Shown here piece after piece: positions 3,554 to 61,724 of a stretch of DNA of 61,724 bases. The translations under genes were made by a program, and so were the position numbers. Each line of letters begins with the position of its first letter. Position 1 is the stretch's first letter. The notes beneath the pieces were generated by a model that saw only the letters and a list, made by a program, of their open reading frames with translations, was not told the DNA's origin and did no database searches. This DNA is from Anaerolineae bacterium. Lineage in GTDB: Bacteria; Chloroflexota; Anaerolineae; Aggregatilineales; Phototrophicaceae. The stretch covers positions 64,001 through 125,724 of the forward strand of contig DAOTTV010000078.1 of NCBI GenBank assembly GCA_034437755.1. The letters run 5' to 3'.

Positions 3554-5782
3554 GTGACCCAAGAAAAAACCATCGTCGTCGGGCAATCCGTCAAGCGCAT
3601 TGATGCGCGGGGCAAAGTCACAGGGGAGACCCCCTACCCCGGCGACATCGACATTGACGACCAACTGTGGCTGAAGATCAAATTCAGCGATCATGCCCAC
3701 GCACGCATCACAGCGATCGATACCAGCCAAGCAGAAGCAATCGCGGGCGTTGTCGCTGTGTATACGGCGGCGGATATTCCCTGTAATGAATACGGACTAG
3801 TCATCAAAGATCAGCCTGTGATTTGCGGAGTCGGGAGCGATCGCGTCGGCGCGGATGTGGTGCGCTGTTACATGGATTACGTCGCCGTCGTCGTGGCAGA
3901 GACGCCAGCGATAGCCGCCGAAGCGGTGAAGCACATTCATGTTGATTATGAGGTGCTTGCGGGCGTATACGACCCTGAAGAAGCGATGCAAGCAGGCGCA
4001 CCCCAGCTTCACCCCGATACCCCGCATAATCTCGTCGCGCAGTATCGCATTCGTAAGGGCGAGATGGACGGCATCTGGGAGCAGTGTGCCGCGATTGTCG
4101 AGGATACTTATGAGACGACATGGCAGGAACACGCTTATCTACAGCCCGAAGCTGGCTTGAGCTACATTGATGATGAGGGGCGCGTGACGGTCGTTGTCGC
4201 CGGACAGTGGAATCACGAAGATCAGGAGCAAATCTATCACGCGCTGGATTTACCGCCAGAACAAGTGCGCGTGGTCTACCCCGCGATTGGCGGCGCGTTC
4301 GGCGGGCGTGAGGATATGTCGGTGCAAATCGTGCTGGCAGTGGCGGCGTACAAGCTCCGTCGTCCCGTGAAAACTGTATGGTCACGCGAAGAGTCGATTT
4401 TGAACCACCATAAACGACACCCGATCACAATCCATGCCAGATGGGGCGCAGACGCTGACGGACGGGTGCTAGCCGTCGACGCGCGGGTGATTGGCGATGC
4501 GGGTGCGTACAATTACACATCGAACAAGGTGCTGGGCAACGCACAGTTGACAGCGACCGGCGCGTATGACATCCCGAATATTCACATCGATACCTACACG
4601 GTCTACACCAACAATATTCCCTGTGGCGCATTTCGGGGCTTCGGGGCGGTGCAGGCGCTCTTCGCCGCCGAGGGACAGATGAACAAACTCGCGGACGCGC
4701 TCGGCATTGATCCGGTCGAAATCCGACGGCGCAATGTCTTTCGCGAAGGCAGTTTGCAATCAACGGGAACGCCCCTGCCTAAGGGCGTGTCGATCGCGAA
4801 AGTAGTCGAGGCCTGTGGCTTACAGAGCTACTGGCAACAGGATGCAGACGGCACGTTTGCCCTGCCACCAATGGAGCAACCAGCTGACCCCAGCAAGCGG
4901 CGCGGTATCGGCTTTGCGTGTGGCTATAAGAATGTCGGTTACAGCTTCGGCTTCCCAGAGCGCAGTTGGGCGATGATCGAACTACATGGCAGGAGAGAGA
5001 TCGAAGAAGTAGTCGTGCGGCATGGCGGCGCGGATGTCGGGCAGGGCGCGCACACAGTCATCGTGCAGATGACAGCCGAGGCGACCGGCGTTGAGATCGA
5101 CAAGGTGCGGCTAGTAACCGCCGATACCGCCGAACATGACACATCCGGCAGTGCTTCGGCATCACGTTTGACCTTCATGGCGGGCAACGCGATTCGGGGT
5201 GCGGCGGAGAAAGCGCTCGCTGCATGGCAAAACGAAGATCGTCCGGCAACGGGTGAGTTTCTGTATCGTCCGCCCAAGACGACCCCCTTCGACCCTCTAA
5301 CGGGGCGCAGTGAGCCGAACTTCGCCTACGGGTATGTGGCGCAGGCAGTCGAGGTCGAAGTCGATATCGAAACCGGACAGATCCAGGTCACACGTGTGGT
5401 CAGCGCTCATGACGTTGGCAAAGCCGTGAACCCGCAACTGATACAGGGACAGATTGAAGGCGGGGTCGTGCAAGCCCTGGGCTATGCACTGATGGAGTAT
5501 CTCGTCAGCGAACAAGGGCGCATCAAGAATCCCTATCTATCAACTTATATCATCCCGACGGTGCTGGATGTTCCGGTCGAGGTGAAATCGGTGATTTTAG
5601 AATATCCCGATCCGATCGGGCCGTGGGGGGCGCGTGGCATGGCAGAGATGCCGATGCTCCCGCTGACACCGGCAATCGCGGCGGCAGTGCATCAGGCGAC
5701 TGGTGTTTGGTTAAACGCCCAACCGTTCACGCCGGATCGGGTCGTTATGGCTCTGCGTCAACGGGGCATTGGTGTTATTTAA
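3554..5782 (+). CDS. Molybdopterin-binding large subunit of a xanthine dehydrogenase / aldehyde oxidase-family enzyme (CoxL/XdhA-like).
   Basis: 742 aa. GTG start with RBS GAGGAAGAGAG. The a/b-hammerhead N-terminus is 'VGQSVKRIDARGKVTGETPY'. 'GGAFGGRED' and 'GFRGFG' are Mo-cofactor-binding motifs. Its size fits the family. Confidence 0.9.
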   Translation: MTQEKTIVVGQSVKRIDARGKVTGETPYPGDIDIDDQLWLKIKFSDHAHARITAIDTSQAEAIAGVVAVYTAADIPCNEYGLVIKDQPVICGVGSDRVGADVVRCYMDYVAVVVAETPAIAAEAVKHIHVDYEVLAGVYDPEEAMQAGAPQLHPDTPHNLVAQYRIRKGEMDGIWEQCAAIVEDTYETTWQEHAYLQPEAGLSYIDDEGRVTVVVAGQWNHEDQEQIYHALDLPPEQVRVVYPAIGGAFGGREDMSVQIVLAVAAYKLRRPVKTVWSREESILNHHKRHPITIHARWGADADGRVLAVDARVIGDAGAYNYTSNKVLGNAQLTATGAYDIPNIHIDTYTVYTNNIPCGAFRGFGAVQALFAAEGQMNKLADALGIDPVEIRRRNVFREGSLQSTGTPLPKGVSIAKVVEACGLQSYWQQDADGTFALPPMEQPADPSKRRGIGFACGYKNVGYSFGFPERSWAMIELHGRREIEEVVVRHGGADVGQGAHTVIVQMTAEATGVEIDKVRLVTADTAEHDTSGSASASRLTFMAGNAIRGAAEKALAAWQNEDRPATGEFLYRPPKTTPFDPLTGRSEPNFAYGYVAQAVEVEVDIETGQIQVTRVVSAHDVGKAVNPQLIQGQIEGGVVQALGYALMEYLVSEQGRIKNPYLSTYIIPTVLDVPVEVKSVILEYPDPIGPWGARGMAEMPMLPLTPAIAAAVHQATGVWLNAQPFTPDRVVMALRQRGIGVI

Positions 5783-18877: not shown

Positions 18878-18910
18878 GGGTGAGCCAGCGGCTATCGTGC
18901 GCTGGCTCAC
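18878..18910. terminator. Strong 12-bp hairpin between the convergent proC and P5C dehydrogenase genes. It is a likely bidirectional terminator, although the U-tract is weak.
   Basis: GGTGAGCCAGCG-gctatcgtg-CGCTGGCTCACC, 22 nt after the proC stop and 15 nt after the stop of the minus-strand gene. Confidence 0.4.
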
Positions 18911-18924
18911 CTGTGGTATCTAAC

Positions 18925-20626: not shown

Positions 20627-20660
20627 AAACAGGTGTCCACGTGAGCATGGACACCTGTTT
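20627..20660 (-). terminator. Rho-independent terminator downstream of tRNA-Leu.
   Basis: On the minus strand, AAACAGGTGTCCA-tgctcacg-TGGACACCTGTTT forms a 13-bp stem running into TTTTGATT. A degenerate partial copy lies at 20581-20601. Confidence 0.6.
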
Positions 20661-23682: not shown

Positions 23683-25291
23683 CCTCCTCCCATGTGCGTG
23701 TAAAGCGATACTGGAGCAATGTCACACCAGCGACGAGGATGAAGTTGATGATGGTAATTGCCGATGCATAGCCATAATCAGCTCCGTTGCGATTGCCAAA
23801 GGCCAGATTATACGTATAACTGATGAGAATATCAGTATACCCCGCCGGCGTTGGTGAATTGGGTATCGGTGGATTACCCTGCGTCAAGGCTTCGATGATT
23901 AAGTAGTTATTGAAGTTAAAGACGAAGGATGCGATCAACAGGGGCCCGACAGTGACCAGCAACAATGGCAAGGTAATCTGCCAGAAGCGATCGACCGGAC
24001 TCGCGCCATCGACGGCGGCGGCTTCGTAGATGTCAGACGGAATCGCCTGTAAAGCACCGCTACAGATCAACATCATATAGGGATAGCCCAGCCACAGATT
24101 GACGACGATGATCACCACCCGCGCCCAGATCGGATCACCGAACCACGTCACGCGTGCGGCATCGCCAAAGAGCGAGATTAAGGTCTCGTTGATCAAGCCG
24201 AAGTTCTCGTTGAACAACCCTCGCCAGACCACAATCGCAATCACGCCCGGTATGGCGTAAGGAATGATGAGAATCGAGCGCACGAGTTTCTTGCCCGGTA
24301 TGACGACATCGTTCAAGATCAAGGCCATGAACAAGCCGACGACGAAGGTTGTGAAGACCGACAAGAAGGCGAACATCACTGTCCAGATGAAAATCTCAAT
24401 CAGCGGCCCGCGTAATCGTTCATCACTGAAGAAGCGCATGAAGTTAAACCAGCCTACGTTGACCCGATAACCCGGATTCAGAATTTCACCTGTCGAGCGT
24501 GCTTCAAAGTATCCTTTTTCGTCATTGGCATCATAGACGACGCCTGTCTGTTGGTTAACGAGCGCATCTTGCTCATTATCGTACAGATACAGACGTTCAA
24601 GCGGACGCGCGGCTTCGCTGAAGTTTCGCACTGCCGCAGTATCATCCTCTGTGCCGAAGGTCGTCTCTTGCAATGTGCCGAGTAAGGGTGCGAGTTCCCG
24701 CCGCGGGACTTGTGTATACCCGTTGTATGTCTCGGGCAAGTCATCCGATGACAAATCGTCGATTGTCTCAATCGGATCACCCACAGGCGCGAAAGCGTAT
24801 TCGATTGTCCCGTCATCAGCTGAACGGGTGAGTAGTAGCGCGAGGTCGTCGGCATCATCGCGATACAGCGACCAGCTATACGTCAGCGCGTCATCCGGCG
24901 CGTAGAGATACTGTCGATTGGTTTCGAGCTGTCGGATTGTTTGTTGTTTGGTAAAGAGATGCCCAGGCGAGAGACTGCCGTAGTTCGTAAAAGCCGTATA
25001 AACAGTATAAAAAATCGGATAGACAACAAGGATCGTGACAAAGAAAAGCCCCGGTGCCATCCAGCGCAGAGGATAGAGCGCCGGTACGAAAGAAATGACA
25101 TTGACTCCGACCACAGCAACCGTCAACACGATGCCGAGTCCGTAAGTTCCGTTGAAGAACAGCCCATAGATTAAGATCAGGGCGAGCGAATCAAGGAACA
25201 TGAGCAAGCCGTAACGCAGAACTGTTAAAACAGTGGAGTCCCCACCAACGGGGGACTCCACTTTCCGTTTTTCGGAAACGGTGGTAGCCAT
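23666..25291 (-). CDS. Carbohydrate ABC transporter permease (MalF-like) with a large periplasmic loop.
   Basis: 541 aa with TM segments at both ends and a long hydrophilic insert of the MalF P2-loop type. Confidence 0.8.
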   Translation of the reverse strand: MATTVSEKRKVESPVGGDSTVLTVLRYGLLMFLDSLALILIYGLFFNGTYGLGIVLTVAVVGVNVISFVPALYPLRWMAPGLFFVTILVVYPIFYTVYTAFTNYGSLSPGHLFTKQQTIRQLETNRQYLYAPDDALTYSWSLYRDDADDLALLLTRSADDGTIEYAFAPVGDPIETIDDLSSDDLPETYNGYTQVPRRELAPLLGTLQETTFGTEDDTAAVRNFSEAARPLERLYLYDNEQDALVNQQTGVVYDANDEKGYFEARSTGEILNPGYRVNVGWFNFMRFFSDERLRGPLIEIFIWTVMFAFLSVFTTFVVGLFMALILNDVVIPGKKLVRSILIIPYAIPGVIAIVVWRGLFNENFGLINETLISLFGDAARVTWFGDPIWARVVIIVVNLWLGYPYMMLICSGALQAIPSDIYEAAAVDGASPVDRFWQITLPLLLVTVGPLLIASFVFNFNNYLIIEALTQGNPPIPNSPTPAGYTDILISYTYNLAFGNRNGADYGYASAITIINFILVAGVTLLQYRFTRTWEEVGENV

Positions 25292-59054: not shown

Positions 59055-59981
59055 ATGCAACACATTCAACGTTTAGAAGATTGCCAACTAAAACAAGCCT
59101 CCGTCGTAACCATTGGCGTGTTCGATGGCGTACATCGCGGACACCAAGCCCTCATCAAAGAACTCGTTCAGGTCGCCCGACAAGCCGGACAACGCGCCGT
59201 CGTGATGACCTTTTTCCCCCATCCAGATATTGTCCTGCGCGGGCTATCAGGGCGCTATTATTTGACTAGCCCGACCCAACGGGCACACCTACTCGGTGAA
59301 TTAGGGGTCGATGTCGTGGTAACGCATCCCTTCAACGACGATGTTCGTAACATTCGTGCGGCAGATTTCGTCCAGAAGCTCGTAAAGCATCTACAGATGA
59401 AAGCGCTGTGGGTTGGCGAAGATTTTGCACTGGGCTACCAGCGTGAAGGTACGGTCGATTACCTGACGCAACTGGGCACAGAGCGCGGTTACACGGTCAA
59501 ACCGCTGACACTCGTCGCAGAGGGCGATAATGCGATTACCAGCACGGCGATTCGCTCACATCTCACAGCGGGGGACATCGCGACCGCCAACAACTTGTTG
59601 GGGCGCATGTATCATATACAGGGCGCAGTCGTCAAAGGCGACCAGCGCGGGCGGGTGATCGGCTTCCCGACAGCGAATATGGCGGTCTGGGATCAGCAGA
59701 TTTTGCCCCAACACGGCGTATATGCGGGTTGGGCGACACTCGGTGACGAACGCTTCATGGCAGTGGCGAATATTGGCGTGCGCCCGACGTTCGAGGGACA
59801 GACGGTGACGGTTGAACCGCACTTGCTAGATTTCGACCGCGATATTTACGGCGAGATACTGTCCTTCCAGTTTGCCAAGCGCCTCCGTGGTGAGCAAAAG
59901 TTCGATGGTTTCAGCGCACTCAAAGCACAATTGACGCGCGACATCGAAGCCGGACGGGCGTATCTCGACAGCCAAACTTAA
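59055..59981 (+). CDS. ribF: Bifunctional riboflavin kinase / FMN adenylyltransferase.
   Basis: 'VVTIGVFDGVHRGHQAL' is the adenylyltransferase domain. 'GAVVKGDQRGRVIGFPTAN' is the riboflavin kinase domain. Confidence 0.9.
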   Translation: MQHIQRLEDCQLKQASVVTIGVFDGVHRGHQALIKELVQVARQAGQRAVVMTFFPHPDIVLRGLSGRYYLTSPTQRAHLLGELGVDVVVTHPFNDDVRNIRAADFVQKLVKHLQMKALWVGEDFALGYQREGTVDYLTQLGTERGYTVKPLTLVAEGDNAITSTAIRSHLTAGDIATANNLLGRMYHIQGAVVKGDQRGRVIGFPTANMAVWDQQILPQHGVYAGWATLGDERFMAVANIGVRPTFEGQTVTVEPHLLDFDRDIYGEILSFQFAKRLRGEQKFDGFSALKAQLTRDIEAGRAYLDSQT

Positions 59982-60046
59982 GCGTTGCTCATTTTATCTT
60001 ACACAAATCCTACAGCCCGTTCATTTACCTGCGATAGCTATCCAAC

Positions 60047-60113
60047 AAACGTAACATATGCTGTAATTAAGTTCATAAAGCAATTGAGGGAGCCAGACAA
60101 CATATGTTACGTT
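60047..60113 (+). promoter_or_regulatory. Perfect 13-bp inverted repeat (AACGTAACATATG ... CATATGTTACGTT) separated by 41 nt. It encloses the RBS GAGGGAG, and its 3' arm covers the ATG of the DUF1328 gene.
   Basis: The arms are exact reverse complements at 60047-60059 and 60101-60113. In mRNA this would form a structure that sequesters the start codon. Confidence 0.4.
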
Positions 60114-60267
60114 TAGCTATTGGATTAGTCGTACTCGCATTATTCGCCGCATTTCTCGGTTTTGGAGGAGTCGCCGGTCTCGCGAAGGTGCAGAATTAGT
60201 ATTCGTCGTCTTCTTGGTGCTGGCAGTTCTCGGCGCTATCTTCGGCAGTAACAACATTACTAGATAA
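60104..60267 (+). pseudogene. UPF0391/DUF1328 (YtjA-like) small membrane protein gene interrupted by a frameshift near nt 60185.
   Basis: Frame 1 gives 'MLRLAIGLVVLALFAAFLGFGGVAGLAKVQN*'. The shifted frame starting at 60187 continues 'GAELVFVVFLVLAVLGAIFGSNNITR*'. Joined, the two match YtjA-type proteins (E. coli YtjA '[29 protein letters not shown]'). Confidence 0.5.
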
Positions 60268-60315
60268 TCGAGCGCGTATTGACCGCTATCGCAGGGGTGG
60301 CGGTCGATTTTTGAT

Positions 60316-61260
60316 TCAGTCGTCATCTGCCGGTATAAAATAGCCGACACGCTTCATGAAGGCGTCGTCACTGCGCCAATTCTTGAGGACTTTGACGTGC
60401 AAGTCAAGATAGACCGGACGACCGATCATCGCCTTGATCGCCTGCCGCGCATCCGTGCCGATGCGCTTGATCATTGCCCCACCCTTGCCGATGATGATGC
60501 CCTTCTGCGAGCTTTTTTCGACGTAGATATTGGCATAAATATCGGTGCGTTTCTCACGATCTTTATAATCAAAGACTTCGACGGCGACCGCGTGCGGTAT
60601 TTCCTGTTGCGTCAACAGCATAATCTGCTCGCGGATCAATTCAGCGACGATGAAGCGCATGTTCAAATCGCTGACTTGCTCAACCGGGTAGTAACGCGGC
60701 CCTCGCGGTAATCGCTGGAAAATATCTTGCACGAGTTGCTTAACCTCCGTGCCGCCTGCCAGCGCATTGAGACGATATGCGTTATCGTGATCGATGATCT
60801 CTAAATGCGCCGCCAAGCTCGCGCCTTCTGGCACGCGATCAATCTTATTCAGCACCAGCATCATCGGCGTTTTACCCACATATGGGCGCACCGTCGCGGC
60901 GATGTGATGATCCGCTTTTTGCGGGACTTCGCTCGCATCCATGATCCACACGATCACATCAGCATCCGTCAGCGCCGTCTCGGCAACTGTCATCATGTAT
61001 TCGCCGAGTTTGGTCTGCGGGGCGTGTAATCCGGGTGTATCCACGAACAGGATTTGCCCACCATCCATCGTATGAATCCCCAGTTGATTGCGACGGGTGG
61101 TCTGCGGTTTAGGCGTGGTGATCGCAATTTTTTGACCGAGAATGGCGTTAATCAGTGTCGATTTACCCACATTCGGGCGACCGACAACCGCGACCACCCC
61201 CGACCGATGATCGTCTGACCAATCGTCGCTAAAAACTGTATCGAGATCGTTGGTACTCAT
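60316..61260 (-). CDS. era: GTPase Era.
   Basis: 'VAVVGRPNVGKSTL', 'DTPG' and 'NKID' are the G domain, followed by the C-terminal KH domain. ATG 61260 overlaps the stop of the upstream gene (ATGA). Confidence 0.9.
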   Translation of the reverse strand: MSTNDLDTVFSDDWSDDHRSGVVAVVGRPNVGKSTLINAILGQKIAITTPKPQTTRRNQLGIHTMDGGQILFVDTPGLHAPQTKLGEYMMTVAETALTDADVIVWIMDASEVPQKADHHIAATVRPYVGKTPMMLVLNKIDRVPEGASLAAHLEIIDHDNAYRLNALAGGTEVKQLVQDIFQRLPRGPRYYPVEQVSDLNMRFIVAELIREQIMLLTQQEIPHAVAVEVFDYKDREKRTDIYANIYVEKSSQKGIIIGKGGAMIKRIGTDARQAIKAMIGRPVYLDLHVKVLKNWRSDDAFMKRVGYFIPADDD

Positions 61261-61724
61261 GATTGTGTCTGTTGCCAATCGGCTATAGTCGGGTAGCGGG
61301 TCAAATGTTGTCGCAGGCGTGCGGGCAAATCATCCGGCGCTGGTGCAATCAGCGCCGTGACCTGTGCCAGCGGCTTGGTCGCGCTCGCATCGGCGTAAAC
61401 CAGCACATGCACCGGATATTCTAAATCCAGCGACTTGATGACGACCATATCATCTTCGCCATCGTTGCGATGCCCGATCACATCACCGCGCGGATACAGA
61501 TTACTGCGCTTGAATAAGAACGTCCATGCCGGCTCGCCGGTGAGGAACTCGCCATAATCGAGCGCGATCAGCGCCGGCACGATGCTCAGGTGGGGCTTCC
61601 CCAAAAACACCACCCCGTAGCGCACGATAAGTTCGCCGTCGGCAATCGTCTTCGCATCGGTAGCGTCATCGGGGGATGCGGTCGTCAGCACATAGGTCTC
61701 ATCGTCGTATGTCAGCACAGTTCC
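61257..61724 (-). CDS. Hypothetical protein, 5'-truncated by the window edge and translationally coupled to era.
   Basis: The ORF is open to the window end, and its stop TGA overlaps the era ATG. Confidence 0.4.
   Translation of the reverse strand, partial: GTVLTYDDETYVLTTASPDDATDAKTIADGELIVRYGVVFLGKPHLSIVPALIALDYGEFLTGEPAWTFLFKRSNLYPRGDVIGHRNDGEDDMVVIKSLDLEYPVHVLVYADASATKPLAQVTALIAPAPDDLPARLRQHLTRYPTIADWQQTQS

Follow-up and report, generated by a model that had tools for sequence, protein, structure and literature searches.

A probable young DUF1328 pseudogene behind an older, lineage-specific predicted start-codon hairpin in an Anaerolineae bacterium

We analysed a stretch of 61,724 nucleotides from an uncultured Anaerolineae bacterium, called the window below, and focused on the 334-nt spacer between ribF, the final gene of an infB-rbfA-nrnA-truB-ribF string, and the convergent era gene. 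The spacer holds a short gene of the DUF1328 family, which starts at ATG 60104 and is followed by its own intrinsic terminator, with a loop 10 nt shorter than that of the sister lineage described below. Coordinates of the features are summarized in Table 1. The G+C content of the DUF1328 cassette (41-49%) is lower than that of the flanking genes (53-64%), and a scan of the window for further DUF1328 genes found no second copy.

Table 1. Coordinates of genes, reading frames and leader elements at the ribF-era locus, numbered from the first position of the window
Feature	Position	Strand	Description
ribF (FAD synthetase / riboflavin kinase)	59055..59981	+	Pfam FAD_syn and Flavokinase; upstream neighbour
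ribF-DUF1328 spacer (leader region)	59982..60103	+	
Left arm, second, outer 11-bp perfect inverted repeat	60028..60038	+	CCTGCGATAGC; pairs with 60285-60295 in the terminator
5' strand, outer 9-bp helix	60032..60040	+	Pairs with 60114-60122; in MFE and centroid structures
Left arm, perfect 14-bp inverted repeat	60047..60060	+	AAACGTAACATATG
Shine-Dalgarno-like GAGGGAG	60086..60092	+	11 nt upstream of the ATG, in the 40-nt hairpin loop
Right arm, perfect 14-bp inverted repeat	60101..60114	+	CATATGTTACGTTT; includes ATG 60104-60106 and codons 2-4
Truncated frame-0 ORF, 31 codons	60104..60199	+	First transmembrane helix and GFGG motif, then K-V-Q-N-stop
Out-of-frame (-1) remnant, second helix	60187..60267	+	GAELVFVVFLVLAVLGAIFGSNNITR, then stop
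Intrinsic terminator, DUF1328 transcription unit	60278..60313	+	13-pair stem, 5-nt loop, T run
Right arm, outer 11-bp inverted repeat	60285..60295	+	GCTATCGCAGG
era (GTPase Era)	60316..61278	-	Pfam MMR_HSR1 and KH_2; convergent, downstream

The DUF1328 coding sequence is divided between two reading frames. Frame 0 encodes 31 residues from the ATG at 60104 (MLRLAIGLVVLALFAAFLGFGGVAGLAKVQN) and ends at a TAG stop codon (60197-60199), and the -1 frame reads (E)GAELVFVVFLVLAVLGAIFGSNNITR up to a TAA stop codon (60265-60267). The remnant is still free of internal stop codons, which carries little information in only 26 codons. Joined into one protein of 54 amino acids, the two halves score 27.2 bits against the Pfam DUF1328 model (gathering cutoff 27) and align over their full length with DUF1328 proteins at 54-61% identity (53-73% in local BLASTP segments), which bears out the proposal of a first-pass annotation of this DNA that the 5' half and the frame-shifted 3' half together rebuild a typical UPF0391 protein. 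The 31-aa product that is actually encoded remains below the same cutoff, with 19.4 bits. The one-frame, two-helix architecture (approximately 50-60 codons, with a GFGG loop) is absent from the window, where the halves lie in different frames, and a single continuous frame is found in the sister lineage only, the intact allele of which reaches 31.1 bits (cutoff 27). Because its two halves are in different frames, the window copy is classified here as a pseudogene member of DUF1328/UPF0391 (PF07043). The NCBIfam PRK13682 equivalog (YtjA-type) models all score below their cutoffs, the best of them, NF010229, giving 40.8 bits with the intact sister protein against a cutoff of 52; judged by these models, the DUF1328 protein of this locus is a member of the family and an equivalog of no named subgroup.

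The 31-aa gene is called in every assembly of the window population, and exact look-up of the 55-aa protein of the sister lineage and of the 31-aa protein in the sequence collection retrieved neither. A scan of metagenome contigs with the reconstructed protein, in which the generic peptide GFGGVAGL was used, returned at least 16 distant intact homologues, which appear Bacteroidota-like, and no close relatives among the matches listed.

The YtjA proteins of E. coli and Salmonella (PF07043; COG5487) have 53 amino acids and two transmembrane segments. The protein at our locus belongs to the same length class and shares with the YtjA family the N-terminal ML/FR-hA motif, the invariant GFGG and the second hydrophobic helix. 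In contrast to the family, the window copy is frameshifted by the loss of 4 nt and can make the first helix only; moreover, the residue after GA is E instead of the consensus K/R/Q, and the C-terminus has a single basic residue. Salmonella ytjA is listed among the small-protein genes under tight control of sigma-S (PMC5437024). Enterobacterial ytjA adjoins osmY (PMC5981175), a context unrelated to the ribF/era slot studied here.

The content of this slot varies among relatives. In those with RibF proteins of 55-69% identity, the convergent ribF and era genes are kept and the sequence between them differs: the slot is empty in L011, L013 and L042, contains a gene for a Zn-dependent phospholipase C-like protein (Zn_dep_PLPC) in L040 and L041, an unrelated ORF of approximately 140 aa in L015, and approximately 450 nt of non-coding DNA in L012 (L040-L042 are the relatives with 68-69% identical RibF). 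A RibF scan of genome contigs gave nearest species representatives with 55-66% identity, and in none of these was DUF1328 found near ribF. Since the slot content varies in this way, the DUF1328 cassette is best described as an accessory insertion specific to the lineage of the window and its sister lineage.

The sister lineage was found in a RibF protein search, which gave one close relative with 96% identity and next matches with at most 69%. The corresponding contig (L038; ENA ERZ10759711, 4.9 kb, approximately 6.6x coverage) has the same truB-ribF-X-era order as the window, and its slot is occupied by an uninterrupted gene of 55 codons, MLRLAIGLVVLALFAAFLGFGGVAGLALEGAELAFVVFLVLAVLGAIFGSNYITR. 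In the DNA alignment, CTCGC----GAAGG of the window stands against CTCGCGCTAGAAGG of the sister lineage (in the wider alignment, CTCGC----GAAGGT against CTCGCGCTAGAAGGT). Four nucleotides are thus missing from the window at the junction 60184/60185, either GCTA or CTAG, as the gap can be placed in two ways one base apart. The deletion of these 4 nt affects the loop between the helices and shifts the frame by a net -1; in the alignment of homologues, the window is short of one residue and one nucleotide in this loop. The comparison with orthologues that the first-pass annotation had proposed thereby yields an intact gene in the sister lineage and a longer loop in all 14 more distant homologues, and because of the latter the 4-nt deletion is the derived state. 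The first-pass annotation had rightly placed a frameshift near 60185; its size, given there as a slip of 1 nt, has to be corrected to a loss of 4 nt with the net effect of -1. The intact state is read from the one low-coverage sister contig, in which a spurious 4-nt insertion that happened to restore the family-typical loop would be very unlikely.

The sister lineage and the window diverge by 6-8% in truB, ribF and era (approximately 7% at the DNA level) and by 18.2% at 4-fold degenerate sites (80/439). Between their DUF1328 genes there are 4 synonymous and 2 non-synonymous changes, a pattern which suggests that purifying selection acted on the gene during most of the period after the lineages separated and that the deletion arose rather recently. 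Sequence comparison thus identifies the deletion as a genuine, evolutionarily young loss-of-function mutation: loss of 4 nt from the loop codons places the second helix in the -1 frame, and the reading frame ends after 31 residues. The 31-aa product, with its single helix, might still be synthesized and have some activity.

We located further contigs carrying the deletion by the exact 31-aa product in combination with the exact RibF protein. At least five assemblies, which derive from four or more sequencing runs (ERR2407577, ERR2407578, ERR1878617 and JGI 3300012009), have the identical junction, and it is found on four haplotypes. The carriers are ERZ922772 and ERZ922773, which are ENA assemblies of Andean microbial-mat metagenomes from project PRJEB25599 (cited by a single paper, bioRxiv 10.1101/870428), JGI 3300012009, the MAG GCA_964509265.1, and the Logan contigs of ERR1878617, ERR2407577 and ERR2407578; contigs from three pipelines (ENA MEGAHIT, JGI and Logan) have the same junction. 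The four spacer haplotypes are defined by T/C at 59994, CCC/CC at 60014-60016 and AAC/TAC/TAT at 60253-60255, and the alleles at 59994 and 60253 occur in all four combinations in the population. In the leader, positions 59994 and 60016 are polymorphic. Two SNPs (60253 and 60255) fall in one codon of the remnant, which is compatible with relaxed constraint, given the small numbers. The population of the window is nearly clonal, with approximately 12 variable sites in approximately 5.7 kb (0.2% diversity); therefore, the presence of the gene in every assembly is on its own no argument for function.

This near-clonality also bears on the idea that the truncated, single-helix peptide is a functional product, still regulated by the leader hairpin, which we regard as unlikely. 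The 5' half of the gene is without polymorphism in the population and differs from the sister lineage by one synonymous change, but at 0.2% diversity a stretch of 80 nt would be expected to show none in any case. The deletion has spared the start codon, Shine-Dalgarno sequence, leader and terminator, and it is old enough to be found on four haplotypes with every allele combination at 59994/60253; such retention is, however, indistinguishable from too little time for decay, and all DUF1328 homologues examined have two helices.

A full-length DUF1328 protein of approximately 54 aa would also result from programmed -1 ribosomal frameshifting, or from transcriptional slippage, near 60182-60190, but this is very improbable. 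Like programmed -1 sites (dnaX, IS transposases), the locus combines overlapping 0 and -1 frames with a Shine-Dalgarno-like element upstream and a predicted hairpin close by: no stop codon interrupts the -1 frame in the 5' half, and this frame runs on to a family-typical C-terminus, GGAGGAG (60164-60170) is located 14 nt upstream of the junction, and the junction is in the ascending arm of a hairpin predicted for 60165-60232 (-26.5 kcal/mol). However, GGAGGAG is explained by the coding of the invariant GFGG motif and occurs in the intact allele too, where a similar hairpin also forms. Unlike the programmed sites, the locus has no slippery X XXY YYZ heptamer in frame 0 from GFGG to the stop codon (GGT CTC GCG AAG GTG CAG AAT TAG). 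There is no homopolymer longer than T4, and none long enough for slippage of RNA polymerase; the only T4 run (60160-60163) would shift the frame ahead of the conserved GFGGVAG motif. The lesion is fixed in four of four haplotypes, but the frame change is absent from the sister lineage, which has one frame with 4 extra nt, and the shift is therefore a recent deletion and no conserved recoding site.

A sequencing or assembly artefact in a genome that is truly intact is hardly credible, for although small indels are a classic artefact and reads are not visible from sequence alone, the junction is identical across three pipelines, at least four runs and a deposited MAG, the contigs carry it on four distinct haplotype backgrounds, and its context contains no homopolymer. 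Among the three causes that the first-pass annotation had considered, sequencing error and programmed frameshifting can thus be set aside, and its remaining suggestion, a pseudogene, is supported by the derived 4-nt deletion relative to the intact sister gene.

The leader of the broken gene contains a perfect 14-bp inverted repeat, the right arm of which covers the start codon. The repeat extends to 18 nt at 94% complementarity. None of 1000 dinucleotide-shuffled versions of the 334-nt spacer contained a perfect inverted repeat of at least 14 nt, and within the window this one exceeds all other perfect repeats, which measure 12-13 bp; three of those enclose short loops like those of terminators, and in two the arms are separated by more than 200 nt. 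The first-pass annotation had reported a perfect repeat of 13 bp, with a correct right arm at 60101-60113 and a left arm (AACGTAACATATG) that was misplaced by one position and lies at 60048-60060. Because the right arm is constrained by its coding for MLRLAIG, it must be the upstream arm that acquired the complementarity.

RNA folding of 60030-60130, a check that had been suggested together with the repeat, predicts a structure of -29.6 kcal/mol, compared to -16.1 +/- 2.9 kcal/mol in shuffles (z = -4.67). In the predicted hairpin, a 13-bp inner helix with a three-pair apical extension is stacked on a 9-bp outer helix, with a 7-nt bulge (60041-60047). The 3' strand consists of the AUG and codons 2-7, and the AUG has a predicted pairing probability of 1.0 at both 37 C and 50 C and still of 0.99 at 60 C. 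The in silico fold, with the Shine-Dalgarno sequence in the loop and the AUG in the stem, supports the earlier description of a repeat that loops out the ribosome-binding site and buries the ATG. An Rfam 15 scan of 59500-60800 with E-values up to 10 gave chance-level matches only (E at least 0.9; 18.8 bits against a gathering cutoff of 58).

The second, outer repeat of 11 bp connects the leader with the terminator region. Inverted repeats of at least 11 nt are found in 2 of 1000 shuffles, and the MFE fold favours local hairpins over the pairing of 60028-60038 with 60285-60295. This repeat is probably fortuitous, since the sister lineage retains only 8 Watson-Crick pairs and 1 G-U pair.

The first-pass annotation had made its reading of the hairpin depend on conservation of the inverted repeat. 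In the sister lineage the hairpin is retained, with one U-G change and one register shift. The left arm is identical to that of the window; the right arm differs by a single synonymous change (CGT to CGG, window position 60112), which costs one A-U pair, and a shift of register allows the new G to pair with the CC of the bulge. In the outer helix, C to T at 60038 converts the 60038:60116 pair from C-G to U-G, and the loop has a C to A substitution at 60094. The fold is kept at -25.4 kcal/mol with the AUG fully paired. The consensus structure, from two sequences only, has 28 pairs, of which none shows a compensatory change and one is altered on one side (C-G to U-G). As the sister lineage carries the predicted hairpin in front of an intact gene, the hairpin predates the deletion.

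Between the lineages, 4 of the 122 leader nucleotides are substituted (3.3%), compared to 18% at 4-fold sites (binomial, 6e-7). We do not take this low divergence as specific support for the hairpin, because the only other alignable spacer between the lineages, used as a control, is equally conserved (approximately 3% divergence). The closest DUF1328 genes elsewhere (L033, L034 and L037) have a different leader without such a repeat. In 15 more distant DUF1328 loci there is no equivalent either, the best start-codon repeats being 8-9 nt long and confined to 2 loci, and predicted pairing of the AUG is heterogeneous. An equivalent repeat is thus absent from all 18 other DUF1328 loci; a family-wide start-codon hairpin is rejected, and these loci give no indication of the element outside this one genus-level lineage. 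By these comparisons, the hairpin is common to the two known lineages of one genus-level clade. Our literature search found no leader element described for the DUF1328 family.

Instead of acting in RNA, the repeat could act at the level of DNA, for example as a cruciform, as a recombination site or as two operator half-sites spaced by approximately 54 bp. It could also be the neutral product of template switching. We consider such explanations doubtful. The centre-to-centre distance of approximately 54 bp is near five helical turns, the right arm lies within a 10-bp palindrome (AACATATGTT, 60099-60108), weak promoter-like hexamers overlap the left arm, and the cassette occupies a slot that is variable among relatives; yet neither arm has another copy in the window, and neither a target-site duplication nor a recombinase gene was found nearby. 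The absence of compensatory changes gives no indication of RNA pairing, but the RNA fold tolerates both stem substitutions of the sister lineage, and with the right arm constrained by coding for MLRL it is the upstream arm that gained the complementarity. The arms are not continued by an inverted duplication (score 14 against 11.8 +/- 2.0 in shuffles), and on the same score we rejected the idea that the repeat is what remains of a longer inverted duplication covering the 5' end of the gene. An attC-like or dif-like recombination site was likewise rejected, as the core motifs misfit by eye and the window contains no further copies.

For control at the level of translation, both arms have to be present in the transcript. 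We found no terminator between ribF and the hairpin, and read-through transcripts would therefore contain both arms. A scan of the spacer revealed no convincing sigma-70 promoter. A weak candidate, TCGACA-19-CATTTT (59965-59995), would give transcripts that include both arms, and starts from the weak -10-like hexamers at 60052 and 60057 would fall inside the hairpin and omit the left arm; some transcripts possibly start there.

Translational control is the most natural reading of the hairpin, plausible but unproven. In transcripts with the left arm, the helix would occlude the initiation codon and keep translation of a small hydrophobic membrane protein low. Initiation would then take place mainly in the brief co-transcriptional interval before the 3' strand pairs or, alternatively, after the helix has been opened or cleaved. 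We identified no activating mechanism: opening of the hairpin by translation of a 43-codon leader ORF (59985-60116) was considered and rejected, because a 1-nt indel breaks this ORF in some strains (L003, L004 and L009). From the model, we infer that constitutive damping of translation would be the most economical reading. In the window itself, the hairpin would be a relic in front of a dead gene. Overall, we consider it likely that the locus is a young DUF1328 pseudogene caused by the 4-nt deletion, with a leader that bears an older, lineage-specific hairpin by which initiation at the start codon would have been damped.

Leader hairpins that occlude the start codon or the ribosome-binding site are an established means of translational repression and coupling in bacterial and phage mRNAs. 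As in these systems, the initiation region here is paired with an upstream complement, with a predicted stability far above that of shuffles. Unlike in these systems, the loop exposes the Shine-Dalgarno sequence, and pairing is confined to the AUG and early codons.

RNA thermometers (ROSE, fourU) are short imperfect helices that melt at 30-45 C. As in the element described here, the initiation region is masked by a structured leader, in our case that of a small gene from a stress-associated family; in contrast, the helix here is perfect over 13-14 bp, with 9 bp in addition. It is predicted to be 99% closed at 60 C. On this in silico prediction a thermometer is rejected, and the temperature-dependent control that had been suggested at first is unlikely.

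In type I toxin mRNAs (hok, tisB, aapA1) the initiation region is locked and the 5' and 3' ends pair. The hairpin could be an undescribed, lineage-specific translational lock, possibly in combination with pairing of 60028-60038 and 60285-60295, which would give an mRNA of similar architecture, but we regard this reading as quite unlikely. The locus shares with the toxin mRNAs a small hydrophobic ORF, a very stable leader structure at the initiation region and a 5'-3' complementarity, here of 11 bp with the terminator region; unlike in the toxin mRNAs, this complementarity shrinks in the sister lineage to the few pairs given above. To our knowledge, DUF1328 is no toxin family, and around the gene we identified neither an antisense promoter/terminator pair nor an antisense RNA gene. 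If the hairpin were nevertheless a lock, one could suspect that the protein does harm when its expression is unregulated, and that this is why the 4-nt deletion was tolerated or favoured.

A helix-occluded start codon is a long-known kind of control, and frameshifted accessory genes are common. In annotation, the 31-aa ORF is to be treated as a DUF1328 pseudogene frameshifted by a 4-nt deletion, and neither as a sequencing error nor as a recoding site, and the ribF/era slot as a small hot spot for accessory genes within this Anaerolineae clade. The DUF1328/YtjA family is widespread and functionally uncharacterised, so that any regulatory handle on it, for which the leader hairpin of the intact sister allele is a candidate, would be mildly useful.

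The entire DUF1328 cassette, the frameshifted small-membrane-protein gene in the 334-nt spacer that separates ribF from the convergent era gene, is flanked by an outer inverted repeat, the right arm of which lies within the terminator hairpin. An inverted repeat of at least 11 nt was found in 2 of 1000 shuffles. In the sister lineage (contig L038), the repeat is reduced to 8 Watson-Crick pairs and one G-U pair, because the terminator loop of the window is shortened by a 10-nt deletion, at a point where the sister lineage has CTGTTTGGGT. Both strands of the terminator stem and the T run are retained in the window and in L038. The outer repeat is probably fortuitous. Elsewhere in the window, three perfect inverted repeats look like ordinary terminator hairpins.

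The leader of the cassette also contains a 43-codon open reading frame, which spans the entire leader hairpin (the inverted repeat that holds the DUF1328 AUG in its stem) and ends 10 nt beyond the ATG. The window and L038 both have this frame uninterrupted, but a 1-nt indel disrupts it in strains L003, L004 and L009, which rules it out as a conserved coding region.

Features of the cassette, the rest of the window and the spacer past its right end (window coordinates unless a contig is named)
Feature	Position	Counterpart in L038	Strand	Description
Outer inverted repeat	60028-60038 / 60285-60295			11 bp, perfect; CCTGCGATAGC / GCTATCGCAGG
Terminator with 10-nt loop indel	60278-60308	2218-2258
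Leader ORF	59985-60116		+	43 codons, TTG start, begins 4 nt past the ribF stop
Polymorphic sites in the DUF1328 spacer	59994, 60016, 60253, 60255
Other inverted repeats	20627-20660; 18879-18911; 25232-25262			12-13 bp, perfect, loops of 7-9 nt
Extra DNA	L001:6120-6313	4014-4150		~194 nt, in the window lineage
Small hairpin	L001:6081-6099

Within the near-clonal population, the DUF1328 spacer holds 4 of the approximately 12 polymorphic sites found in ~5.7 kb. The alleles at 59994 and 60253 occur in all four combinations, which suggests recombination within the population.

Just past the right end of the window, reached by contig L001 of the same lineage, the spacer between a 100-aa gene and a His_Phos_1 gene contains extra DNA relative to the sister lineage, with flanks that are ~97% identical between L001 and L038. 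A small hairpin in this spacer differs between the two lineages by a compensatory double change: one lineage has GCTGTCATTTCTACAGC and the other GCCGTCATTTCTACGGC. The pairing of this hairpin is therefore under selection. Unlike this hairpin, the DUF1328 leader hairpin shows no compensatory change between the window lineage and the sister lineage.

Two neighboring genes differ in their called lengths. The era gene (60316-61278, minus strand) comprises 320 aa when read mechanically from a TTG start, versus 314 aa according to the gene callers on the matching contigs, and the downstream gene of 158 aa is given a length of 172 aa both in one strain and in the sister lineage. Such differences are start-codon ambiguities only.

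Among related Anaerolineae (L011, L012, L013, L015, L040, L041 and L042), the content of the slot between ribF and era differs: it may be empty, or be occupied by a Zn_dep_PLPC gene, an ORF of ~140 aa or ~450 nt of non-coding DNA. Across these relatives, the gap between the two convergent genes is a site of variable content.
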